A stretch of 59,587 bases of DNA from an uncultured Bacilli bacterium (GTDB taxonomy: Bacteria > Bacillota_I > Bacilli_A > RF39 > UBA660): assembly GCA_934091015.1 (NCBI GenBank), contig CAKOKM010000001.1:1-59587 (forward strand). Reading direction: 5' to 3'. Below the pieces are notes generated by a model that was not told the origin of the DNA, did no database searches, and saw only the letters and a list, made by a program, of their open reading frames with translations. Shown piece after piece: positions 21,781 to 48,928 of this stretch (position 1 is the first letter of the stretch; every line of letters begins with the position of its first letter). Position numbers and translations under genes: made by a program.

Positions 21781-21978
21781 AGTGCTGACTTTGTTTTCAA
21801 AACAGGATATAATATATTAGTGCTGACTTTTATAAAAGAATAGTATATAATATATTTTATAGTTAATTACAATTCAGGATAAACTAATGTATAATTTTAA
21901 CAAAAGTGCTGACTTTGATCTTAAAACACGGTATAATATTATTGTAGTGCTGATTTTTATTCGTAAAAATGATAAACT
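21781..21978 (+). promoter_or_regulatory. Four tandem promoter-like units AGTGCTGA(C/T)TTT-N14-TATAAT
   Basis: Units start at 21781, 21819, 21905 and 21946. Each has CTGACT/CTGATT, an exact 17-nt spacer, then TATAAT (21808, 21846, 21932) or TAAACT (21973). Lies upstream of the methyltransferase genes. Confidence 0.55.
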
Positions 21979-21995
21979 ATAAAGGGAGGTTAATT

Positions 21996-23057
21996 ATGAC
22001 AAAATATAAAGTTCTAGATTTATTTTGTGGGGCGGGAGGACTTAGCTTAGGATTTAAATTAGCAGGTTTTCAAATTGTAGGTGGAATTGACTTCCAACGA
22101 GATGCAATTTATACACATGAAAAAAATTTTAAAAATAGTATTTCCATATGTGGAGATATTAAAGAAATATCAGATGATAAGGTTAAAGAGTTGTATGAAA
22201 ATAAGGTTGATATAATTATAGGTGGACCACCATGTCAAGGTTTCTCGGCAGGAAACAGACAACAAATTGAAAATGACCCAAGAAATAAATTGTTTTTCGA
22301 ATTCATTAGATTTGTTAGAATTTTACAACCAAAGGCAGTTGTGATAGAAAATGTAAGACAAATATTAACGAAAGATAAAGGATTTGCTAAAACTAAAATA
22401 TTTGAAATTTTAGAAGAACTTGGATATAACGTTGATGTTAGAGTTTTAAAAGCGAATGATTATGGGGTTCCTCAAAACAGGAATAGAGCAATTTTTATTG
22501 GCTTAAAAAAAGAATATGGTAAAATTGATTATGATAAGATTAAAAAAATATCAATTCCAGTAACAGTAAAAGAAGCAATCGGAGAATTATATGAATTGGA
22601 AAATAAAAATACAAATATTATAACAATCAAACCACTAACAAAATTTCAAAAATATGTTAGATCAAAAGATAATATGATATTTAACCACGATATAAAATAT
22701 CCTAATCAAGAAGTACAAGATAGAATGAATTTTGTTCCACAAGGTGGAAATTGGCAAAATGTACCAGAAAATATGTGGAAAACAAAAAGAAACAATAGAC
22801 ATTCTTCTGCATATAGAAGATTGGATGAAAATAAGCCATCAATAACAATAGATACTGGCCATATGAATTATTTTCATCCATTATATAATAGAGTTCCTAC
22901 GGTTAGGGAGTCAGCAAGATTACAATCTTTTCCAGATGATTTTATTTTCGTCGGTACACCTACAAGTCAATTAAGGCAAGTAGGAAATGCAGTGCCACCA
23001 TTGATGGCAAAAGCAGTTGCAGAATTAATTAAGGAGACTTTAGCAAATGAAAAATAG
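21996..23057 (+). CDS. dcm: DNA (cytosine-5)-methyltransferase 1
   Basis: Motif I DLFCGAGG, motif IV GGPPCQGFS, ENV, QNRNR, TVRESARLQSFPDDF and GNAVPP. AGGGAGG RBS before ATG 21996. Confidence 0.92.
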   Translation: MTKYKVLDLFCGAGGLSLGFKLAGFQIVGGIDFQRDAIYTHEKNFKNSISICGDIKEISDDKVKELYENKVDIIIGGPPCQGFSAGNRQQIENDPRNKLFFEFIRFVRILQPKAVVIENVRQILTKDKGFAKTKIFEILEELGYNVDVRVLKANDYGVPQNRNRAIFIGLKKEYGKIDYDKIKKISIPVTVKEAIGELYELENKNTNIITIKPLTKFQKYVRSKDNMIFNHDIKYPNQEVQDRMNFVPQGGNWQNVPENMWKTKRNNRHSSAYRRLDENKPSITIDTGHMNYFHPLYNRVPTVRESARLQSFPDDFIFVGTPTSQLRQVGNAVPPLMAKAVAELIKETLANEK

Positions 23058-24117
23058 AAAAAATGTGATAGATTTGTTCTGTGGGTGTGGCGGATTTTCT
23101 AAAGGGTTTGAAGACGCCGGTTTTGAAGTTAAATTAGCTATAGATATGTGGAATGATGCTATTGAAACATTTAATGTAAATCATCATGTTCCAGTTGGGA
23201 TAACAAAAAACATTTATGATTATACTAATGAAGAAATAAAGGAATTTGCAAAGAAAAATCGCATTACAGGAATTATAGGTGGACCACCATGTCAAGGATT
23301 TAGTATGGTTGGTAAAAGAGAGGCTAGCGATAAAAGGAATACGTTATATTTACAATATGTAAGATTTGTAGAACAAATAAGGCCAGAATTTTTTATTCTT
23401 GAAAATGTTAAGGGGTTATTGACTTTACAAAAAGGATATTTTAAGAAAGAGATAATAGAAAGATTTTCTGAACTTGGATATAATGTCACATATAAAGTGT
23501 TACGTGCATGTGATTATGGTGTTCCCCAAAAAAGAGAAAGAGTATTTTTTGTAGGGCTTAGGAAAGATAAATTTGGAGATAAATTTTTTGAATATCCTCA
23601 ACCAGTTAATCATATAGTTGGAACTGAAGAAGCGTTAAGTGATTTACCTTCTCTTGATAATGGTGAATTAGAAACTGAATATAAGACTAAACCACAGAAT
23701 GAATTCCAAAAATTAATGAGAAAAAATTCAAAATATATAAACAATAACGAAATAACAGTACATTCGAAACAAACAAAGAAAATTATTTCAATGATTCCAG
23801 ATGGTGGTAATATTAAATCATTACCATCAGAATATTTTAAAATTAGAAACTATAGCTCTGCTTTTAAAAGAATGAATAGTAAAGAACCATCAACAACAAT
23901 AGATTGTGGCCACAGAAATTATTTTCATTATAAAGAAAATAGAATCCCTACCGTTAGAGAATCTGCAAGAATTCAATCTTTTTCAGATAATTTTATATTC
24001 CTTGGATCTAAAACTAGTCAATATACTCAGGTTGGTAATGCAGTGCCACCACTTTTAGCAGAAGCAGTGGCTAATGCTTTAAAAAAAATGTATAAAGAAA
24101 TTGATAAAAACGACTAA
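23047..24117 (+). CDS. dcm: DNA (cytosine-5)-methyltransferase 2
   Basis: DLFCGCGG, GGPPCQGFS, ENV, QKRER, TVRESARIQSFSDNF and GNAVPP. Overlaps the first methyltransferase gene by 11 nt. Confidence 0.92.
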   Translation: MKNRKNVIDLFCGCGGFSKGFEDAGFEVKLAIDMWNDAIETFNVNHHVPVGITKNIYDYTNEEIKEFAKKNRITGIIGGPPCQGFSMVGKREASDKRNTLYLQYVRFVEQIRPEFFILENVKGLLTLQKGYFKKEIIERFSELGYNVTYKVLRACDYGVPQKRERVFFVGLRKDKFGDKFFEYPQPVNHIVGTEEALSDLPSLDNGELETEYKTKPQNEFQKLMRKNSKYINNNEITVHSKQTKKIISMIPDGGNIKSLPSEYFKIRNYSSAFKRMNSKEPSTTIDCGHRNYFHYKENRIPTVRESARIQSFSDNFIFLGSKTSQYTQVGNAVPPLLAEAVANALKKMYKEIDKND

Positions 24118-24189
24118 AAATGGTTGTTTTTTTAATATATTAATAAATCTTATTAAAAATATGTTACAATGTAATTGGTGGTTGTAGTT

Positions 24190-25251
24190 ATGTTTAGTTA
24201 TGAGAATTTGTATAATAAAGTGTTTGATACAACAATAGATTCGGATAAACTTGTTATTATAAGTGGTTATGTTGGACCTGCAGTTGTTCAAGACTTAAAA
24301 AAATTACCATATGATGTAGAGTTATATGTTGGAATGTATGGTAATGTAATTAGTGGAATATTACATAAGAGTTTATTAAAATCAGATAAAATGGAAAATG
24401 TTTCTATATTTTATACTAATATATTGGTTCATGCAAAATGCTACATTTGGTTTAAAAATAATAAAATAGTTAAGGCTTTGATTGGATCGGCAAACTTTTC
24501 AACAAGTGGTTTAATGACTCCTAAAAAGGAAGTATTAGGATATATTCCTGAAGAATCATATGATGAAATGTTAGTATATATTAATCTAATTAAACAGGTT
24601 TCATATTCAGTAAAAGAATATAATTATGAAGAAAAAAATATCATCGGTTTTACTGATGATATGACTCAAACTATAAGTGATAAAGAGGTTGAAATTTCTT
24701 TATTAGCGGCTAGAGGTAGTGGAAATCAAAACAATATTATAGGTATTGCTACCAATCCGGGTGATGTACATGCAGGAGCTGGTTTAAACTGGGGATTTTC
24801 TAATGGTATGCCAAAACCAAATGATGCATATATTAAAATTCCAAAAGAACAAATTATTAATAATCCTTTAATGTTTCCGCCTAAAAGTAATGATATAAAT
24901 GATCCCATTGATGTAATTTGGGATGACGGCACAGAAATGCAAATGCTTTTGGAAGGTAATCAAACTGTAGAGGGTATTGATTACCCTAAACAAATTAGTA
25001 CATATAAGAGTAAAAAAGAATTAGGATTATATTTAAGAAAACGAATAGGAGATGCGATAGGAAAAAACTTAATCATTCCAGAAGAATTGTCAAAAGATGA
25101 GTTCGTCGCTAAAGCACATTATTATAAAGATAAATTTATAACAAAAGAAATGTTAGACTTATATGGCAGAACATCAATTAATATCAAGTTAATTGGCGAT
25201 CGAACTTATTATTTTGATTTTTCAAGAAATAATTCAGAAAAAGAACAATAA
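24190..25251 (+). CDS. PLD-family (HKD) restriction endonuclease, NgoFVII/BfiI-like
   Basis: Single HKD motif VHAKCYIWFKNNKIVKALIGSANFS (H-x-K...GSxN) in the N-terminal half, and a distinct C-terminal half. Immediately downstream of the two methyltransferase genes. Confidence 0.7.
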   Translation: MFSYENLYNKVFDTTIDSDKLVIISGYVGPAVVQDLKKLPYDVELYVGMYGNVISGILHKSLLKSDKMENVSIFYTNILVHAKCYIWFKNNKIVKALIGSANFSTSGLMTPKKEVLGYIPEESYDEMLVYINLIKQVSYSVKEYNYEEKNIIGFTDDMTQTISDKEVEISLLAARGSGNQNNIIGIATNPGDVHAGAGLNWGFSNGMPKPNDAYIKIPKEQIINNPLMFPPKSNDINDPIDVIWDDGTEMQMLLEGNQTVEGIDYPKQISTYKSKKELGLYLRKRIGDAIGKNLIIPEELSKDEFVAKAHYYKDKFITKEMLDLYGRTSINIKLIGDRTYYFDFSRNNSEKEQ

Positions 25252-39080: not shown

Positions 39081-39815
39081 ATGTATAGAAACAAAAAGAA
39101 AATAGGTAATCATATGAATTATAAAACTAAAATACTACAATATCTTATAAGTACTAAGCCGAAACATTATGGAATAATGCAAGAATTAATTAACAAAGGA
39201 GTATTCGATAAAATTTTAAAAATTAATTTTAAAAAAAAAGATAAAGAAGATAATAATCAAAATGTTGAAGAATCATTTATTGAAAAACTAACTTTCTTTG
39301 TTGATTTCTTTCATAACAACTTTCCATCAATTAAAGAAAAAGGACACATACTAGAGTTAATTTTAACTACAAATATACCAGAGTTTTTAACTTCGCCTAT
39401 TACTTTAAAAGAACTTAACGATAAATATATTATTTATTCAATGAAAAAAACAATCATTAATAACTTCCTAACTATATTTAAACAAATTAGAAATAATATC
39501 CCCATTCAAGAATTAAATAAGATCAAAATAAAATATAACTATAATTTAGATAAATTAACAGATGTTGAAAACCTATTTAATATTTTAAAAGACCTAGTAA
39601 CAACCAATATAACTAATGATGATAACATTCTATACTTATTTGATAACTACGCTAACAATATGACCAAAATAGAAAAAGAATATAACCTTAATAAACAAGA
39701 AACAATCATTAAAATAAATAATGAATATATTTATTACTATAATAAAATATTTACTAATTATTATAAAAGAATAAAAATCCTTAAAATAACAAAATTTATA
39801 TATAAAATGACATAA
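39081..39815 (+). CDS. Hypothetical protein
   Basis: 244-aa Asn/Lys/Ile-rich ORF divergent from the regulator. Start uncertain (39081 or 39114). No motif recognised. Confidence 0.45.
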   Translation: MYRNKKKIGNHMNYKTKILQYLISTKPKHYGIMQELINKGVFDKILKINFKKKDKEDNNQNVEESFIEKLTFFVDFFHNNFPSIKEKGHILELILTTNIPEFLTSPITLKELNDKYIIYSMKKTIINNFLTIFKQIRNNIPIQELNKIKIKYNYNLDKLTDVENLFNILKDLVTTNITNDDNILYLFDNYANNMTKIEKEYNLNKQETIIKINNEYIYYYNKIFTNYYKRIKILKITKFIYKMT

Positions 39816-39905
39816 TTAACTAAATAAAATCCCAAACAAGCAATTAAATCTACCAAAATCCAACTGTCTAATGATATAATTAAAATAAGATAAGAGGTTG
39901 GCATT

Positions 39906-42900
39906 ATGGTTTTAACTAGTGAAGAGATAAAATCCAAAGATTTTGAATTACTAAAGTTATATCAAAATCAAGTTAATGAATTACTACTAAAAGATAAATA
40001 CATCTCTAAAAAAGAGTATCTAAAAATATACAAACAACTAACACCTATAATTCATAAACTAAAAATTATGGAAAAAGAATCTATGCTTGAACTATGGTGC
40101 CAAAAAAATAAAGTAGATTACTACGAAATAAAAAGTCTTATTAACTTTTATACAAACACTAGTAAAATAATAGATGATAAAAATACGCTTTATGTAAATA
40201 AACATCTAGAAGCTGATAAAGAATATTTAGATACCATTCTTGCAAATGAAGACCCAAACATAAAACTAGATAAAGAACAAAGAAAAGTAATCCTTTCTGA
40301 TGAAGATTACACATTAGTAGTAGCAGGAGCAGGATCTGGTAAAACAACTACTATTGAAGCCAAAGTTAAATATCTTATTGAAAAACAGCACATAGATCCA
40401 AATCGTATTTTAATAATCTCCTTTACCAGAAAAGCAACTAATGAATTACAAACAAGATGTAAGCGCCTTGGCTTGCCTGTTAAAATATCCACATTCCATT
40501 CCCTAGCAAATCAGGTTATTGGCTCAGCCGAAGAATCCCATCATCAAATAACAACTGGAGATTTAATGTTCAAAACTATTAAAGAATACCTTATTAATAA
40601 TGAAAATGACGAAGAATTTGTAAAAAAGATCCTTCTATTCTTTGCTAGTTACTTAAACGTTCCTTTTGGTGAAGAAAATATAAGTTTATTATTCTCGGAA
40701 CTAGCAAAAAATGATTGCTCAACCCTTAAATCCGATATAATATCATCTCTTGACGAATTTAACAAAAAACAAATTAGTCAAAAATATACCTTAAAAAATG
40801 AAAAAGTCAAAAGTGTTGAAGAATGCCGTATCGCCAACTTTTTATACATAAACGGTATTGACTATGAATATGAACCAGTTTATAAATATTGCTTTAATAA
40901 TACAATTAAACCATATTGCCCAGATTTCATAATTAGACAATATAACAAAGAAATATATCTTGAACATTTTGGTATATCTGAAAATGGAGAAAATCCAAGA
41001 TACTCTAAAGAAGAACTAGAACAATATAAAAAACACGTTAATGACAAAATAATGTTTCACAGAAAACATGGTACTAAATTAATTTATACCTTTTCAAAAT
41101 ATAATGATAACAAAGATACAATAACTCATTTAAAAGAAGAATTAATAAAATCAGGCGTCTCATTTGAACCTAAAAGCCAAAAAGCAATTTATAAAGCCAT
41201 CCTATCAAATTTAGAAGATAAATATTTTAACAAACTAGTTCAGTTAATATGTGTCTTCATATCTAGATTCAAAACTAATAATTTTAGCCCATCCAAATTT
41301 GATGAATGGAAAATTACCTTATCTGATGAAAGAACCAAATTATTTGTAAATATTTGTTACGAATGCTATTTAGCTTACTCAAGCGTATTAAAAAATACCG
41401 GAAGTATTGACTTTGAAGACATGATTAATAATGCCTCTAATATATTAGATAAATTGATTGAAAATAATCAAAAGTTACCATACGACTATATATTTGTTGA
41501 TGAATATCAAGATATTTCACTTCAAAGATTTAATCTATGTGAAAAATTATCAAAATGTTCTAATGCTAAAATAGTAGCTGTCGGCGATGACTGGCAATCA
41601 ATATTTAAATTTAGTGGTGCTCAAATTGATTTATTTACCAAATTTGAACAAATAATGGGTTATGCCAATATTCAAAAAATAACTAATACATATCGCAATT
41701 TCCAAGAACTAATCGATATAGCCGGTAACTTTGTAATGTCAAATAAATACCAAATAACTAAAAAATTAAAATCAAATAAATCTATAAAAAATCCTGTTAT
41801 TTTAATGACATATAATGATAAAAAAGACTATATATCATACAAACTAGGTGATACAGTAACAAATAGGTTAGGTAGTGCTATTGAACACGCTTTAGACAAT
41901 ATTGTTAAAGAAAATGGAATAAATCAAAAAGTATTGTTTATAGGTCGTTATGGTTTTGAACAATTCATATTATCGAATTATAAAGAAGGTTTCACCTATA
42001 AAAGAAATAAATTATATTCTAATAAATATCCTAAATTAAATATTACCTTTTTGACTGCTCATTCATCAAAAGGATTAACATATGATAATGTAATAATAAT
42101 AAATGGTAAAGATGCAATTTTAGGTTTCCCATCAAGAATAGTTGATGATCCTGTCATGAAACTGGTTATCAAAGACGAAGAAAACTTCGAATATGCCGAA
42201 GAAAGAAGATTATTCTACGTTGCTCTAACTAGAACAAAAAATAAAGTTTATATCTTAACACCAAAATATAAACCATCCAAATTTATTTTAGAATTAAATA
42301 ATAACTATCAAAATGTTCTAGTAGTTGGTGAAAAAATAGAGCCGGAAGTTAATTATGATAATTTATTAAAATGTCCTTTATGCGGCTATCCATTACAAAG
42401 AAGAAGTAATAATAATTTTAAAATTCCTGGAGAAATATGGATATGTTCAAATGATCCAGAAATTTGTGGATATGTAACTAATAATCCAAGAGGAGGAAAA
42501 ATGTCCATTTCCAAATGCCCAAAATGCTCTGATGGTTATTTAATTGTTAAAAAAGTTCCAGATCCAGCTAAAGAAAAATATATTTTAGGTTGTACTAACT
42601 ATTTAAAAGATGGAACAGGTTGTAATGCTTATTTAGTTGATAATAAATATACTCAAGATTTAGATCTAGTTAATTTAGAGTTTTTTGATAAAAATACTGA
42701 TATTCAAAAATTAACCTATTGTAATAAAAACTTTATAGAACTAGTAAACACTATAATATATATTGCAAAATATTATGAAAATTATAAATTTAAAATAAGC
42801 CCTAGAACAATCTTAGAAATATTAGTAGGTGCAAGTAGCAAACAAATAAAAGTATTCAAACTATACAAAAATAAATACTATGGTTATTTAACAGTTGATG

Positions 42901-43052
42901 ATAGGCAAAAATATTGGGCATTATTTAAAGCACTAACCAAAGAAGAAATTTTAAATGTCGATGAAAGTAACTATAATAATGTAACAGCCCTAAAAGATCA
43001 TTTAACATTAGATGATTATAAAATAATTTATGCATCAATCAAAATAAAATAA
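39906..43052 (+). CDS. Helicase IV-like UvrD-family SF1 helicase with C-terminal zinc ribbons
   Basis: AGAGSGKTTT (motif I), FVDEYQD (motif II), VGDDWQSIF, TNTYRN, TAHSSKGLTYDNVIII and LFYVALTRTKNKVYI. Insertion CRIANFLYINGIDYEYEP...YCPDFII...YLEHFG is typical of helicase IV. Two CxxC...C ribbons (CPLCGY..., CPKCSDGY...GCTNY...GC). Confidence 0.8.
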   Translation: MVLTSEEIKSKDFELLKLYQNQVNELLLKDKYISKKEYLKIYKQLTPIIHKLKIMEKESMLELWCQKNKVDYYEIKSLINFYTNTSKIIDDKNTLYVNKHLEADKEYLDTILANEDPNIKLDKEQRKVILSDEDYTLVVAGAGSGKTTTIEAKVKYLIEKQHIDPNRILIISFTRKATNELQTRCKRLGLPVKISTFHSLANQVIGSAEESHHQITTGDLMFKTIKEYLINNENDEEFVKKILLFFASYLNVPFGEENISLLFSELAKNDCSTLKSDIISSLDEFNKKQISQKYTLKNEKVKSVEECRIANFLYINGIDYEYEPVYKYCFNNTIKPYCPDFIIRQYNKEIYLEHFGISENGENPRYSKEELEQYKKHVNDKIMFHRKHGTKLIYTFSKYNDNKDTITHLKEELIKSGVSFEPKSQKAIYKAILSNLEDKYFNKLVQLICVFISRFKTNNFSPSKFDEWKITLSDERTKLFVNICYECYLAYSSVLKNTGSIDFEDMINNASNILDKLIENNQKLPYDYIFVDEYQDISLQRFNLCEKLSKCSNAKIVAVGDDWQSIFKFSGAQIDLFTKFEQIMGYANIQKITNTYRNFQELIDIAGNFVMSNKYQITKKLKSNKSIKNPVILMTYNDKKDYISYKLGDTVTNRLGSAIEHALDNIVKENGINQKVLFIGRYGFEQFILSNYKEGFTYKRNKLYSNKYPKLNITFLTAHSSKGLTYDNVIIINGKDAILGFPSRIVDDPVMKLVIKDEENFEYAEERRLFYVALTRTKNKVYILTPKYKPSKFILELNNNYQNVLVVGEKIEPEVNYDNLLKCPLCGYPLQRRSNNNFKIPGEIWICSNDPEICGYVTNNPRGGKMSISKCPKCSDGYLIVKKVPDPAKEKYILGCTNYLKDGTGCNAYLVDNKYTQDLDLVNLEFFDKNTDIQKLTYCNKNFIELVNTIIYIAKYYENYKFKISPRTILEILVGASSKQIKVFKLYKNKYYGYLTVDDRQKYWALFKALTKEEILNVDESNYNNVTALKDHLTLDDYKIIYASIKIK

Positions 43053-43056
43053 GTAC

Positions 43057-43087
43057 AGGAACTAAATATAATTATTAGTTCCTTTTA
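43057..43087 (+). terminator. Intrinsic terminator
   Basis: AGGAACTAA-loop-TTAGTTCCT followed by a T-run. Confidence 0.7.
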
Positions 43088-43272
43088 TAATTTAAAATTT
43101 TTATTAAAAAAATAAGTATATTTAACAAAACTTAAATATTTATTAACTTACTTATATATGCTAAGAAATATCAAATATTAAAATCTATTTTAAATTATGT
43201 TAAGTTATATAAAATTATGTCTTTATTGTTTGTTTATAGATTTGATATAATATGTATCAAGGGAGGATAAAT

Positions 43273-44094
43273 ATGAGTAATATAGTAGATTATACTGAAA
43301 AAAATTTTGAAGATATAAAGCATATTGATGACAACGGAAATGAGTTTTGGGAGGCTAGAGAATTACAACAAATTCTTGGCTATAAAGAATGGAGATATTT
43401 TTCAGCAGTAATTGAAAAGGCTCAAATTGCTTGTTCTCAAAGTAATAATAGTATAAATTTCCATTTTGGTGTAAACACCAAAATCGTACCAGCCGGTAAA
43501 ACAACAAAACCTATTATAGACTATAAATTAAGTAGGTATGCATGTTATTTAATCGTTCAAAATGCAAATCCAAAATATAAAGCGGTAGCATTAGGTCAAA
43601 CGTATTTTGCAGTACAAACCAGAAAAATGGAATTAACAGAAGAAGAATACAATAAATTATCCGAAGATGAAAAGAGACTTTATCGTAGAAAACAAACCAA
43701 AGATGGTAATAAAATTTTATATAGAATCGCCAAAGAAAAAGGAGTCAAAAACTTTGATAGATTTACAAATGCAGGCTACAAAGGACTCTATAATGGAGAG
43801 ACAGCAAATGATATTGCAAAAAGAAAGGGATTAAGATATAGGGAAGATATTCTCGATAATATGGGAAGTGCTGAATTGGGTGCTAATATATTTAGAATTA
43901 CTCAAACAGAAGCATTATTAGAAAAGCAAGAACAGCCCAATGAACAATTAGCAACCGAAACTCATTACAAAGTTGGAGTGACAGTAAGAAAGGCTATTAA
44001 AGAACTTGGTGGAACAATGCCAGAAGAATTACCAACACCTAACAAATCTATTAAAGAATTAGAAAAAGAAAATTTAAAGATCGAGTACAAATAA
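43273..44094 (+). CDS. dinD: DNA damage-inducible protein D (DinD)-like protein
   Basis: N-terminus FEDIKHIDDNGNEFWEARELQQILGYKEWRYFSAVIEKAQIAC and later YACYLIVQNANP and ALGQTYFAVQTR match my recollection of the DinD family. GGGAGG RBS before ATG 43273. Confidence 0.6.
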   Translation: MSNIVDYTEKNFEDIKHIDDNGNEFWEARELQQILGYKEWRYFSAVIEKAQIACSQSNNSINFHFGVNTKIVPAGKTTKPIIDYKLSRYACYLIVQNANPKYKAVALGQTYFAVQTRKMELTEEEYNKLSEDEKRLYRRKQTKDGNKILYRIAKEKGVKNFDRFTNAGYKGLYNGETANDIAKRKGLRYREDILDNMGSAELGANIFRITQTEALLEKQEQPNEQLATETHYKVGVTVRKAIKELGGTMPEELPTPNKSIKELEKENLKIEYK

Positions 44095-44134
44095 AATTTT
44101 TTCTAAAAATTAAAGCATTCAACTGAAGATGATT

Positions 44135-44164
44135 TACGATTTTGGTGTTTACACCAAAATCGTA
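44135..44164. repeat. 30-bp palindrome TACGATTTTGGTGT-TT-ACACCAAAATCGTA
   Basis: 14-bp arms. A 26-nt stretch is the reverse complement of 43463-43488 inside dinD. Confidence 0.8.
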
Positions 44165-44307
44165 ATAAAAATGATTAATAAACTTTTAAATATTTCATTA
44201 ATGTCATGTATATAAACTGACTAAATAAAGGTAATTATGTTTAAAACTAAAATAATAACTATCAAAAAATTCAATTAATAAGTCGTTATCATAATCAAAC
44301 AAATGTA

Positions 44308-44336
44308 TTGACATAACCATGCTAACATTATATTAT
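44308..44336 (+). promoter_or_regulatory. Sigma-A type promoter
   Basis: TTGACA (44308-44313), 17 nt, TATTAT (44331-44336). Confidence 0.6.
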
Positions 44337-44365
44337 AACAAATAACAAATTAATTGGAGGTAAAT

Positions 44366-46726
44366 GTGAACGATACAGAAATTATTAAATTAATCAATCA
44401 TAATAAAAATGAAATAGTACGATTAACTAAAGAAATAGATATACTTACCCAAAAATTAAATCAAGAAAAAAATGATGCAAAAATACTAACACAAGAAGAT
44501 AAAATAAAAATATTTATGGACTATTTTAAAGGAAGAACGGATGTTTATCCATCAATGAGATATGATAAAGCAACAAATAAAATAACATATTTTCCATTAT
44601 GCCAAAATGCCTTTAAATCAGGTGTATGTAATCTAACTAAAAATCAAAAATGTAACACATGTCAATATCGTCAAAATACACCATTAACCTACGAAACCAT
44701 AAAGAATCATATGTACAATGACAAAGCAATAGGAATTTATCCAATATTAGAAGATGACACTTGTTATTTTGTTGCATTTGATTTTGATAATAAACAAGGT
44801 AATAATGATATAAAAGAAGAAGTTTTAGCATTCTCCAGTATATGCGATAAATATAATATTCCATATATTATGGAAAAAAGTCGTTCAGGAAATGGTATTC
44901 ATATATGGATTTTCTTTGAAACCAATATAAAAGCAATAACAGCACGAAAAATGGGAAGTCTGTTATTATCTAAAACGATGGAATTAACTAATTTATCACC
45001 AACATCTTTCGATCGAATGTTTCCGAGTCAAGATACATTACCTAAAGGCGGTTATGGCAATTTAATAAGTCTTCCATTTCAAAAAGAACCAGCTAAATAT
45101 GGAAATACATTACTAATAGATAAGAACTTTATGACAATAAAAAACCAATTTTTATACCTAAAAGGAATTCATAAAATGACAGAATTAGAAATATATGATA
45201 CTATCAAAATTCTATCCCAAAACACCATTGATTTAGGACACGAAATAATTGATATGAATAAAGAAATAAAAACCAAAACTAAAAATAATATATCTTATCC
45301 CAAGTCAATAAATATAATTTTAAAAGATATGATCTATATCGACAAAGCAAATTTATCCAGTGAAGTAAAAAATGCTTTTAGAAGACTAGCCACATTTGCA
45401 AACCCAGAGTTTTACAAAAAACAAAGGTTAAGAATGTCAGTTTATAATACTCCAATGATAATTGATTGTAGCAAAGAAGATGAAAAATATATTAAACTTC
45501 CTAGAGGAACATACGAATATTTAGAAAATTTATGTAATATAAACAATATTTTGATCAATAAAACAGACACTAGAAATAAAGGAATAAAATTAAATTTAAA
45601 ATTTAATGGTAAATTAAGAGACGAACAAAAAAATGCCTTAAGTTGTTTATTAAAATATGATAATGGTATATTATGTGCTCCTACCGGATTTGGCAAAACC
45701 GTCATCGGTTGTAAATTAATTGAAGAAAGAAAAGTAAATACACTAATATTAGTTAATAGAATTCAATTGCTTAAACAATGGCAAGAAAGAATCAAAGAAT
45801 TTTTAAATATTGATGAAGTTGGAGAAATTAGTGGAACAAAAAAGAAAATTACAAATAAAATTGATGTTGCCAGCATTAGATCATTATGGAATAACGGAAA
45901 GATTTTAGATATAACAAAGAATTATGGGATGATAATTATTGATGAATGTCATCATACAGCGGCTTATACTTTTGAACAATCTATAAATACAGGAGATTCT
46001 AAATACGTATATGGTATATCTGCTACTCCAGAAAGAGAAAATGGTCATACTCCAATAATAACAATGCAATGTGGCAACATTAGATATAAAGTAGATAATT
46101 TAAAGTTTAATCAAGAATTAAATATACCAATGAAAGTAATAGTTCAAAAAAGTCACTTGAATTTTACCAATCCAAATATAAAAAACTACGCTTTAAACGA
46201 AATCAATGATTTAATATCAAAAGATATAATAAGAACTGAAAAAATAATAAAAGACATTAAGTATGAATTTAATAATGGAAAAAATATTTTAGTTCTAACT
46301 GAACGTTTAGAGCATCTAGACTATATTTATAATAAATTAAAAAATATTACTGACAATGTTCTAAAATATTATGGTGGAATTGGTAAAAAGAAATTAAAAG
46401 AATATGCTAGTTTAACTAATTTAATTAATGAAAAATGTGAAAATAAAATAATTGTTGCGACTGGTTCAACCGTAGGAGAAGGATTTGATGATGCTAAACT
46501 AGATGTTTTATTCTTAACAATGCCAATTTCTGGAAAAACAAGAGTAACACAATATGCTGGAAGATTGCATAGAAAAGATGTTAATAAAAAAGATATAATT
46601 ATATATGATTATGTTGATGATAATTTTGTACAAACAAGAAATATGTTTTTAAAGAGAAAAAAGACATATGAAAAATTAGGATATAACATTGTCGAAGATT
46701 ATGAACAAACCAAATTAAATATTTAA
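44366..46726 (+). CDS. Archaeo-eukaryotic primase (AEP)-like domain fused to an SF2 (DEAD/ResIII-type) helicase
   Basis: N-terminal F-x-GR-x-DVY, a Cys cluster (CQN...C-x8-C-x2-C), FVAFDFDN (AEP motif I), SRSGNGIHIWIFF (motif II) and FDRMFPSQD. Helicase part CAPTGFGKT, IIIDECHH, SATPER and QYAGRLHR. Start is GTG 44366 (GGAGG 5 nt upstream) or TTG 44354. Confidence 0.75.
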   Translation: MNDTEIIKLINHNKNEIVRLTKEIDILTQKLNQEKNDAKILTQEDKIKIFMDYFKGRTDVYPSMRYDKATNKITYFPLCQNAFKSGVCNLTKNQKCNTCQYRQNTPLTYETIKNHMYNDKAIGIYPILEDDTCYFVAFDFDNKQGNNDIKEEVLAFSSICDKYNIPYIMEKSRSGNGIHIWIFFETNIKAITARKMGSLLLSKTMELTNLSPTSFDRMFPSQDTLPKGGYGNLISLPFQKEPAKYGNTLLIDKNFMTIKNQFLYLKGIHKMTELEIYDTIKILSQNTIDLGHEIIDMNKEIKTKTKNNISYPKSINIILKDMIYIDKANLSSEVKNAFRRLATFANPEFYKKQRLRMSVYNTPMIIDCSKEDEKYIKLPRGTYEYLENLCNINNILINKTDTRNKGIKLNLKFNGKLRDEQKNALSCLLKYDNGILCAPTGFGKTVIGCKLIEERKVNTLILVNRIQLLKQWQERIKEFLNIDEVGEISGTKKKITNKIDVASIRSLWNNGKILDITKNYGMIIIDECHHTAAYTFEQSINTGDSKYVYGISATPERENGHTPIITMQCGNIRYKVDNLKFNQELNIPMKVIVQKSHLNFTNPNIKNYALNEINDLISKDIIRTEKIIKDIKYEFNNGKNILVLTERLEHLDYIYNKLKNITDNVLKYYGGIGKKKLKEYASLTNLINEKCENKIIVATGSTVGEGFDDAKLDVLFLTMPISGKTRVTQYAGRLHRKDVNKKDIIIYDYVDDNFVQTRNMFLKRKKTYEKLGYNIVEDYEQTKLNI

Positions 46727-46741
46727 GAAAGAAGTGAAAAA

Positions 46742-47134
46742 ATGATTAAGGTAGTAGCTGCAATAATTAGAAATAATCAAAATGAAATATTTATAGCTCA
46801 AAGAAATCAAAATAAATCTCAAGGTGGTTTATGGGAATTTCCTGGTGGGAAAATCGAACCTAATGAAACTGAAAATCAGGCAATTATTAGAGAAATAAAA
46901 GAAGAATTAGACATGAATATTACAGTAATAGATAAGTATACTGAAATAATTTATGAATATCCCGATAAAACTATTAATCTAATTGTCTTAAATTGTCAAA
47001 TGAATGATAATCATTATGCTTTACTAGAACACCAAGATTGTGCCTGGACAGTTCCATCTAATCTAAAAAACTATGAATTTGCTCCTGCTGACAAGATCAT
47101 CATTAACAAATTAAACAACAATAAAATCTCTTAA
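46742..47134 (+). CDS. Nudix hydrolase (MutT-like)
   Basis: Nudix box GGLWEFPGGKIEPNETENQAIIREIKEELDM. 130 aa, 15 nt after the AEP-helicase gene. Confidence 0.85.
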   Translation: MIKVVAAIIRNNQNEIFIAQRNQNKSQGGLWEFPGGKIEPNETENQAIIREIKEELDMNITVIDKYTEIIYEYPDKTINLIVLNCQMNDNHYALLEHQDCAWTVPSNLKNYEFAPADKIIINKLNNNKIS

Positions 47135-47680
47135 TATTATATTGATAGGATTAAATTTTTTGTAAATTATTTCTTAATTTTGGTTTTGATTGACAAACCT
47201 GTAAAAAACTTTAATATTTTTGATACTTATATCATTAAAAGATGTATAGTTGCTAATAATCAGACAATATTTGCAACTATCTTTTTTTATACAATAAAAT
47301 TTCATACTACAAAAACAAACGCATGATATACATAATATTAAAGTATAAAATTTAAGGATTAAAATCAAATTATCTAAATATGAATAATAACTAATAAAAA
47401 CATAATAAAAAGCAATGAAAGATAGCAACTACCGGAATTTAAGTCTGTAAATATTAAAGGTTACTTTATATTTGAAACAGAAAATTATAAGTAAAATACG
47501 AAAATATCAAATTTTAATTTTTATCTACGTTTAGTGTTAAACAAATACATCAAAAAAGAATTCATAGTATCAAGCAAAATACATGTCGACATGATCAAAG
47601 ACGGGTTTACATTAACTTAAAATTTGATATAATAATTATAGATAGTAAAGAAGACTATTGTTTAGAAAGGTAGGAGAGAA

Positions 47681-48928
47681 ATGAGTAATATTCATGTGAC
47701 AAGTGAAATAGGAAAATTAAAAAAAGTATTACTTCATAGACCAGGAAATGAGTTATTAAATCTAACTCCAGATACTTTAAATGAATTACTTTTTGACGAT
47801 ATTCCTTATTTAGCTGAAGCACAAAGAGAACATGACATGTTCGCAAAAGCATTAATTGAAAATGACATAGAAGTTGTTTATCTTGAAGATTTAGTAGCAG
47901 AAGTAATTGATAGTGATGAAAAAATTCGTGATAAATTTATTCGACAATTTATTATAGAGGCTGGAATTCATACTATAAAGTATCAAATTTTAACCTATAA
48001 ATTTTTAGATAAAATAAAAGATTCTAAAAAATTAGTACTACAAACCATGGAAGGAATTCAAATTAAAGACTTTCCTTTTAGAAAAAGGGAAATAGAAAAA
48101 ACGTTGGTGGATTTAGTTGATGAGCCAGAAAAGTTTATAGCAGCTCCAATGCCAAATTTATACTTTACAAGAGATAATTTTGCAAGCGTTGGTGAGGGAG
48201 CAAATTTAAATCACATGTATTCAGTTACAAGAAATAGGGAATGCATTTATGCCGAATATATCTTTAAATATCATCCAGATTTTAAAGACACACCTTTATA
48301 TTATAATAGAGGTTATCATTGGCATACAGAAGGTGGAGACTTATTAAATATTAATGAACATACTGTAGCCATTGGTATCTCACAAAGGACTGAAGCATCA
48401 GCTATAGATCAAATTTCTAAAAACTTTTTTAAAGATCCAACTTGTAAAATTGATACTGTTTTAGCATTTAATATTCCAGTATCAAGAGCATTTATGCATC
48501 TTGATACAGTATTTACACAAATAGATAAGTATACATTTACATACCATCCTGCAATTTCAGATACATTACAAGTGTTTGAAATAACTGAAGGGTTTGATCC
48601 TACAACTTATGAAGATTTAAATGTAAAAGAAATAAAAGGATCATTAAAGGAAATATTGGAAAAATATTTAGATCACCCAGTAACTCTTATTCCTTGTGCT
48701 GGAGGAGATAAAGTAGCCAGCGAGCGTGAACAATGGAATGATGGATCAAACACATTATGTATAGCACCAGGAGTAGTTGTTGTATATGATAGAAATGATG
48801 TAACAAATAAAGAATTACGCAAAGCTGGTCTTAAAGTAATTGAGATTTGTGGAGCAGAATTAAGTCGTGGACGTGGAGGCCCAAGATGTATGTCTATGCC
48901 ACTTGTGAGGGAGGATGTTGAATGGTAG
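47681..48928 (+). CDS. arcA: Arginine deiminase
   Basis: 415 aa. The N-terminus [15 protein letters not shown] and C-terminal GGPRCMSMP (catalytic Cys) are typical of ArcA. Confidence 0.92.

Follow-up and report, generated by a model that had tools for sequence, protein, structure and literature searches.

At the edge of a defense island in an uncultured Bacilli bacterium, one gene joins an archaeo-eukaryotic primase (AEP) domain to a superfamily 2 (SF2) helicase domain, and a MutT-like Nudix hydrolase gene follows directly downstream. The question raised by this locus, which occupies positions 44308 to 47134 of a 59,587-nt stretch of DNA (contig CAKOKM010000001.1, forward strand; hereafter the window), is whether the two genes form a conflict system, as an earlier note made from the sequence had proposed, or whether the fusion gene acts on its own. 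[quoted passage not shown]

The fusion open reading frame (ORF) is intact, and its translation and domain matches mark it as a real gene. Read from a TTG it spans 44354..46726 on the + strand and encodes 790 aa; read from an in-frame GTG it spans 44366..46726 and encodes 786 aa. The GTG is the likelier start, because a GGAGG lies 5 nt ahead of it and because a database protein 98% identical to the fusion protein (P0001) is also 786 aa long. The translation holds FVAFDFDN, SRSGNGIHIWIFF, CAPTGFGKT, IIIDECHH, and QYAGRLHR, together with the cysteine cluster CQNAFKSGVCNLTKNQKCNTC. Upstream of the gene, the promoter-like site TTGACA-17-TATTAT (44308..44336, +; 11 of 12 matches) is the top-scoring site of its kind within 42900-47700. 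Such sites are no more frequent in this 25%-GC region than in shuffled sequence (43 found versus 39.8 expected); TTGACA-17-TATTAT is a plausible promoter, but its presence is not evidence of function. The earlier note had correctly placed all the motifs that it quoted, the MutT-like Nudix gene with its 15-nt spacer, and the promoter-like site.

A Pfam scan assigns residues 49-281 of the fusion protein to PF22548 (AEP-TOTE) with 264.5 bits against a cut-off of 27 (1e-78), and the same model scores 268 bits for this protein in a six-frame search of the genome. The protein also matches ResIII (90 bits, 2e-25), DEAD (49 bits, 7e-13), and, weakly, Helicase_C. These matches bear out the proposed architecture of an AEP domain fused to a ResIII/DEAD-type SF2 helicase, and the Pfam name of the first domain, “TOTE conflict system AEP”, agrees with the statement in the earlier note that such proteins had been computationally predicted to belong to conflict systems. 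The AEP (PrimPol) catalytic domain (44498..45196, +) contains all three of its motifs, namely A (hDhD; D139-x-D141), B (sxH; S172/S174/G175/G177/H179), and C (hD; D216). Tyr125, at the sugar-selectivity position, stands in for the ribose-sensing histidine. The SF2 ATPase/translocase domain (45611..46696, +) likewise retains motif I (GKT, residues 443-445), motif II (DExH; DECHH, residues 526-530), and motif VI with its arginine finger (Q729..G732-R733..R736). N-terminal to the AEP core lies a cluster of four cysteines, C79, C88, C96, and C99 (44600..44662, +), which presumably binds zinc; the IEE biochemistry paper is silent on this cluster and does not report priming by IEE (PMC9943667).

Residue conservation was counted in an alignment of 102 family representatives. 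Asp216, Lys444, Asp526/Glu527, Arg733, and Arg736 are invariant (102/102), Asp139, Asp141, and His179 occur in 99/102 each, and Tyr125 in 97/102; all are present in the fusion protein. Each cysteine of the cluster is conserved in 87-89 of the 102 (~87%), E. coli IEE included. At the level of sequence, the predicted active sites of both domains are intact. An AlphaFold2 model of the fusion protein, computed from a 25-sequence alignment, has a mean pLDDT of 86. Foldseek pairs its AEP domain with CAPP, the CRISPR-associated primase-polymerase (7nqd; TM-score 0.82, root-mean-square deviation 3.0, 28% identity) and gives XPB and T4 UvsW as the top matches to residues ~300-780. Sequence matches to PDB entries, which are XPB/Rad25 and UvsW for the motor half, agree with Foldseek.

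This family includes an enzyme with published biochemistry, the IEE of E. coli O157:H7. A record labeled E. coli O157:H7 EDL933 among the plasmid tblastn matches carries a 786-aa coding sequence (CDS; L131:7872-10232), which we identified as IEE by its length and by the presence of D142, D144, Y128, H178, and D216 as numbered in PMC9943667. The fusion protein aligns with it collinearly over 754 of 786 residues without large gaps (38% identity, 58% positives, 542 bits), the AEP residues listed above fall on IEE D142/D144/H178/D216/Y128, with Tyr125 as the counterpart of Tyr128, and IEE itself matches PF22548 at 1.7e-98. The alignments identify the predicted fusion protein as a member of the IEE family, which combines an AEP domain of the “Z1568-like” family, to which Calvo et al. 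(2023, PMC9943667) assigned IEE (Pfam AEP-TOTE), with an XPB-like SF2 ATPase. The gene is a new example of an experimentally characterized family and not a new kind of system. The earlier note knew of no experimental characterization of the architecture; as a full-length homolog, IEE supplies both in vivo and in vitro data (PMC9943667). In a quick maximum-likelihood tree of 85 family members, the fusion protein falls in a clade of gut Bacilli and Clostridia and E. coli IEE in a proteobacterial clade, and the fusion protein is by these measures a family member rather than a close ortholog of IEE.

E. coli IEE is an Mn2+-dependent, error-prone DNA polymerase that tolerates primer/template dislocation and joins 3′ overhangs sharing at least 4 bp of homology, that is, by microhomology-mediated end joining, for which both domains are required (PMC9943667). 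It is also a DNA-dependent ATPase, inactivated by K451A, that does not unwind duplexes (PMC9943667). According to the work of Kusumoto et al. (2011) as cited in PMC9943667, IEE promotes the transposase-dependent excision of IS3-, IS1-, and IS30-family elements in vivo.

If the fusion gene encodes an enzyme of this kind, what is the role of the Nudix gene beside it? The Nudix gene (46742..47134, +), whose ORF starts 15 nt past the fusion-gene stop codon, passes the NCBIfam MutT equivalog model TIGR00586 (114.6 bits against a cut-off of 97.9) and holds the Nudix box GKIEPNETENQAIIREIKEELD, in which the last glycine is replaced by aspartate. It also matches the PADLOC candidate model PDC-S07 at 1.2e-48. 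Copies of the protein occur in 5 of 23 other species of the genus, at 96-98% identity in G003, G005, G010, and G020 and at 66-68% in G012, while PF22548 is found in only 2 of these 23 species and in 3 of 36 in the family. At the site in the window and in G005, which have PF22548, an XRE regulator gene (- strand) is followed by a 244-aa ORF, a UvrD/helicase IV-like gene, dinD, the fusion gene, the Nudix gene, and the arc operon. In G010, G020, and G012 the helicase gene leads directly to the Nudix gene (in G012 the arc operon is missing as well), and in G003 the 244-aa ORF does so; no PF22548 match was found in these four genomes.

The edges of the intervening DNA were located by blastn of window positions 42801-47300 against the sister loci, together with protein synteny. 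Homology to G010 and G020 stops at 43097 and restarts at 46708. Between these points lies a 3.6-kb segment (43098..46707, +), with dinD and the fusion gene, that the window and G005 possess; G010, G020, and G012 have 104 bp in its place. The left edge lies 45 nt past the helicase stop codon, just beyond the helicase terminator hairpin. At the right edge, the final six codons of the fusion ORF contain the joint, and these codons and the stop are shared with genomes that lack the gene (46700-46745). Because the joint lies within the end of the ORF, the 15-nt spacing and the probable read-through into the Nudix gene are by-products of the joint. The 104 bp found in genomes without the segment carry a promoter-like TTGATA...TATAAT ahead of the Nudix gene, and since this stretch was lost, the Nudix gene probably now belongs to the transcription unit that lies upstream, co-transcribed by an accident of the joint.

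Across the slot as a whole (39081-47134), between the 244-aa ORF and the Nudix gene, the sister species show three states: empty (G003; L044), occupied by the UvrD/helicase IV-like gene only (G010, G012, G020; L045, L046, L047), or occupied by the helicase gene, dinD, and the IEE-like gene (window, G005; L040).

On the evidence of this synteny, the Nudix gene is a resident flank gene of a hotspot and a neighbor, not a functional partner, of the fusion gene. An adjacent Nudix gene is found at none of 88 further loci of the family (80 loci from one genome per species in more than 15 phyla, plus metagenome, relative-genome, and plasmid loci), and L120 has the only one within 8 kb, at a distance of 7 kb. 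The pairing with the fusion gene proposed in the earlier note does not survive these comparisons, and its echo of a MazG/DUF2075 pair farther upstream is a coincidence of neighborhood. The note had also allowed that the Nudix gene might prove to be the core-genome mutT, unrelated to the helicase; it is an unrelated resident gene, but it is accessory in the genus rather than core. A tie between the Nudix gene and the upstream UvrD/helicase IV-like gene was considered and rejected, as none of 29 helicase loci from other genera has a Nudix gene, a 244-aa ORF, or an XRE gene within 1.5 kb and the adjacency is only local.

In the wider family, a full HMMER scan against 1.84 billion representatives returned 25,598 matches at E≤1e-3 and 1,709 at E≤1e-30, the latter being clusters at 50% identity; in one source a homolog is labeled only “DEAD/DEAH box helicase”. 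The proteins fall into two length classes, of ~780-830 aa and ~920-1000 aa. A C-terminal PLD nuclease is present in the longer class, in 7 of 25 representatives, and the distribution of PLD-bearing forms on the 85-member tree requires at least six changes. No neighbor family is common to more than ~15% of the 88 loci, and the closest homologs outside the genus, at 71% identity, have unrelated genes downstream. By tblastn, full-length homologs lie on 98 plasmid records, where the copies have cargo genes around them, at a distance from repA or just next to a resolvase gene. The absence of a widely common neighbor, the patchy presence in the genus (2/23), and the carriage on plasmids establish the fusion gene as a stand-alone, single-gene cassette that lacks a conserved partner.

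Several neighbors nevertheless recur at low frequency. AbiEi and AbiEii genes lie immediately upstream of the family gene at 10 loci, those of the 71%-identical gut homologs among them, with at least five independent origins on the tree. In gut Bacilli, Gammaproteobacteria, and Acidobacteriota, the three genes form a tight operon whose gaps range from -22 to +15 nt (L002-L005, L051, L052, L054, L084, L095, L127, L128). At 13 of the 88 loci, a family without a Pfam match, mostly of ~400 aa with some fragmentary calls, is found on either side of the family gene; it adjoins IEE-family genes mostly on the same strand (L075, L076, L078, L085, L105, L115, L116, L117, L119, L125, and others) and may be a true optional partner. 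Schlafen/AlbA_2 (eight loci), DUF6155-like (seven), Fic (seven), and RhuM (five) neighbors also occur, and a HigB-HTH pair is present at one locus, on an Acinetobacter plasmid. Decay of the IEE-family gene is common: in L051, L052, L057, L094, and L112, frameshifts or stops break it into two or three ORFs.

Four other explanations have to be weighed against an IEE-family cassette. The one we regard as worth keeping, though improbable, is that dinD and the IEE-like gene form a host module for DNA-damage tolerance or repair, parallel to cassettes of dinD, a Y-family polymerase, and YolD. Paralogs of dinD with 62-82% identity lie directly before a UmuC/DinB-type polymerase gene (PF00817) and a YolD-like gene in L175, L176, L179, and L183, and others stand beside recA (L180, L181). 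IEE is an error-prone polymerase with end-joining activity, and dinD here precedes such a polymerase; most bacteria lack an end-joining system, according to the authors of PMC9943667. Against this, dinD adjoins none of the 88 other family loci, whose contexts are mostly toxin-antitoxin and defense genes and not repair genes. The two genes here are separated by 259 nt with a hairpin, the IEE-like gene has its own promoter-like site, and homology among the dinD paralogs stops at the CDS ends. Matches to LexA or Cheo boxes with at most one mismatch, as searched in the window, are at chance level (12 found versus 9.5 expected), and no such box was found near the dinD or IEE promoters. The two-gene system of AEP-helicase and Nudix, in which a nucleotide hydrolase would act together with a nucleic-acid enzyme, draws on the co-transcription made likely by the 15-nt spacer and the lost Nudix upstream region and on the PDC-S07 match. 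We give it hardly any credence in view of the same-site Nudix genes in four sister species without PF22548, the 88 loci, the unrelated genes that follow the 71%-identical homologs, and the origin of the spacing in the joint.

A role of the fusion protein as effector in a TOTE (TPR, OB, TBP, Effector) conflict system, dependent on sensor and adaptor partners, is highly improbable at this locus. The definition of these systems by Aravind, Iyer et al. (2022) is taken as quoted in PMC12458937. The name of PF22548 speaks for such a role, as do the PLD-bearing long forms among the representatives and a 35%-identical homolog in G042 that carries a C-terminal PLD and whose operon also encodes a TPR protein, DUF1848, and a 408-aa protein. 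The fusion protein belongs to the short form and has no PLD, such partners are not seen at most of the 88 loci, and no TPR, OB (CSD), or TBP gene is present among the ORFs scanned from 21969 to 47134. PF00352 (TBP) has no match at E≤0.01 in the whole assembly, a search that divergent TBP-like folds could escape. Least probable of all is that the gene encodes the primase-helicase that replicates a plasmid, prophage, or integrative element; a plasmid or prophage protein of this kind was a case that the earlier note had named as speaking against its own proposal. AEP-helicase fusions are common as replication proteins of mobile elements, homologs sit on plasmids, and the E. coli IEE gene follows AlpA, YfjI, and Gp2-type genes within an integrative element. 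The motor of the fusion protein is, however, XPB-like SF2 and not of the hexameric SF3/SF4/DnaB type, E. coli IEE has no unwinding activity, and the plasmid copies lie among cargo genes in the arrangement described above. None of 50,697 phage records contains a full-length copy (tblastn, ≥80% coverage), the only phage matches being to the helicase half at less than 30% identity, and a scan of viral contigs with the single fusion protein gave 10 pattern hits, none of them confirmed. No integrase, rep, or partition gene stands beside the fusion gene.

In the G042 operon just mentioned (L043, on G042:C8), the family member has 1050 aa and the TPR protein 536 aa, and the 408-aa protein is unannotated. 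This operon looks like a complete TOTE-type system.

For the IEE-family enzyme, we can outline a mechanism by homology. The N-terminal PrimPol domain would act as an Mn2+-dependent, low-fidelity DNA polymerase that uses dNTPs, realigns primer and template, and extends 3′ ends that pair over a microhomology of a few bases. The C-terminal domain would act as a DNA-dependent ATPase or double-stranded DNA (dsDNA) translocase that holds DNA and brings two ends together without unwinding. In the cell, mobile DNA would supply the targets, in the form of DNA ends or of intermediates of its replication, and the enzyme would join or strand-switch them at microhomologies; the mobile DNA would be IS elements in transposition in E. 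coli and might be that of phages or plasmids here. Locally, the gene is a single-gene cassette with its own putative promoter, housed with a dinD paralog in the swappable slot. These biochemical activities are carried over from IEE at 38% identity, and the in vivo target in mobile DNA is similarly inferred; action on mobile DNA other than IS elements is plausible in this host because the family occurs in defense-island and toxin-antitoxin contexts.

Some observations weigh against this explanation. With 38% identity to IEE and a place in another clade of the tree, the fusion protein may differ from it in the details of its activities. In vivo, the role known for IEE depends on a copy-out-paste-in transposase (PMC9943667), and no rve-type transposase scores above the Pfam cut-off in the window assembly or in the 20-contig assembly of the sister G005, which has the same island; metagenome-assembled genomes (MAGs) often lose repeats. 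The rve model (PF00665) gives one sub-threshold match of 20.6 bits in the window assembly (G000) and none in G005, both 91%-complete MAGs in which repeats are often unassembled. The two assemblies contain no IS256-type transposase gene and one IS4-like transposase gene, with the same caveat that MAGs often miss repeats. A literature search returned no anti-phage or anti-plasmid phenotype for any member of the IEE/AEP-SF2 fusion family.

A broader idea, which we put forward tentatively and consider rather unlikely, is that IEE-family enzymes are stand-alone immune effectors of a general kind, directed at mobile DNA, and that the excision of IS elements in E. coli is only one way in which this shows. 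In IS-poor gut Bacilli, they might abort the replication of phages, plasmids, or circle-forming transposons by strand switching or microhomology joining. If so, a shared regulatory or addiction logic would lie behind the repeated, independent association with “leader” genes (AbiE, Fic, RhuM/DinD, and HigB).

The dinD gene (43252..44094, +), which encodes a DNA-damage-inducible protein D with a Bro-N N-terminus, forms a separate transcription unit upstream of the fusion gene. Its product scores 321 bits with NCBIfam PRK11525 (cut-off, 242), matches PADLOC PDC-S13, and shows no homology to RhuM by BLASTP. The dinD family is present in 21 of 23 species of the genus, with three copies in the window genome and seven in G004. 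In the cassettes with a Y-family polymerase, one of which lies on contig 52 of the window’s own genome (L179), the conserved order is an HTH_3 regulator gene, dinD, the PF00817 polymerase gene, and the YolD-like gene, and the cassette looks like an SOS-type mutagenesis module. A piece of ~47 nt of the dinD coding sequence (43457-43503), centered on the palindrome TTTTGGTGTnnACACCAAAA, recurs in inverted orientation at 44134-44180, 40 nt after the dinD stop codon, and also matches internal sequence of a G004 dinD paralog at 85%. The inverted repeat could be a recombination scar or a hairpin terminator.

The window is contig 1 of a 1.3-Mb, 104-contig MAG that is 91% complete, and the fusion gene closes a defense island of ~25 kb in which genes were scanned from 21969 to 47134. 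Domain scans of the neighboring ORFs confirm the island-edge position suggested in the earlier note. In the left part of the island, two tandem C5 cytosine methylase genes and an NgoFVII-type endonuclease gene (PLD and B3-like domains; 21969-25251) make up a type II restriction-modification system. The island further includes genes for MazG with a Schlafen-group-3 helicase, for a RecD-like helicase, and for Fic with a 933-aa protein, as well as the XRE regulator gene, 244-aa ORF, helicase IV-like gene, and dinD of the slot region.

Taken together, the analysis removes the AEP-helicase/Nudix system as a false lead and connects an enzyme of known biochemistry with a very large family that usually goes unannotated. 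The question it raises concerns the family and not the locus: why an IS-excision enhancer is a recurrent cargo of defense islands, toxin-antitoxin operons, and plasmids in IS-poor genomes. The family may supply an immune enzyme against mobile elements, a repair enzyme, or both.

Among known systems, TOTE systems lend their name to the Pfam family of the AEP domain, and the fusion gene, too, sits among defense genes. TOTE systems, however, have TPR-OB and TBP partners, of which none is present here, and the fusion protein carries neither a PLD nor an RNase H addition; by the definition in PMC12458937, the fusion locus falls short of a complete TOTE system. Only the distant G042 homolog sits in a fuller operon of the TOTE-like kind. 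CAPP from Marinitoga (Zabrady et al. 2021; PDB 7NQD/7NQE/7NQF) offers the closest solved structure for the AEP domain (phmmer 2e-15), and the PADLOC model “PrimPol, Cas-associated” matches the fusion protein at 4e-71. CAPP lies in a CRISPR-Cas adaptation module, whereas no Cas domains occur among the scanned neighbors of the fusion gene, and its helicase partner and overall architecture differ. An assignment of the fusion protein as CAPP was rejected on its 83 bits against the NCBIfam equivalog NF040561, well below the cut-off of 200, and on its lack of Cas neighbors.

The SF2 dsDNA translocases XPB/Rad25 and phage T4 UvsW are the best matches of the motor half in both sequence and fold, and their translocase mode fits an ATPase such as IEE that has no helicase activity. 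Unlike the fusion protein, they carry no polymerase and work in complexes for transcription and nucleotide excision repair or for recombination. DNA polymerase theta provides a functional analogy, as it couples a helicase-like ATPase to a polymerase of low fidelity, which uses microhomologies to join 3′ overhangs (PMC9943667, PMC11724360); it is eukaryotic, and its polymerase is of the A family, with an unrelated fold and the opposite domain order. E. coli IEE (ECs1305/Z1568) lies in a P4/CP4-like integrative element, whereas the fusion gene lies in a chromosomal defense island behind dinD. IEE carriers nearly always have IS629-like elements (co-occurrence in 94.75% of E. coli carriers; PMC9943667), in contrast to the host assemblies of the fusion gene, in which no IS3/IS30-type transposase scores above cut-off. 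The activities of IEE were measured, and those of the fusion protein are predicted from homology. The two proteins share their length of 786 aa and a collinear architecture, with the same catalytic aspartates, histidine, and tyrosine, Walker A motif, DECH box, arginine finger, and N-terminal four-cysteine cluster, and the genes of both are patchy in distribution and horizontally spread.

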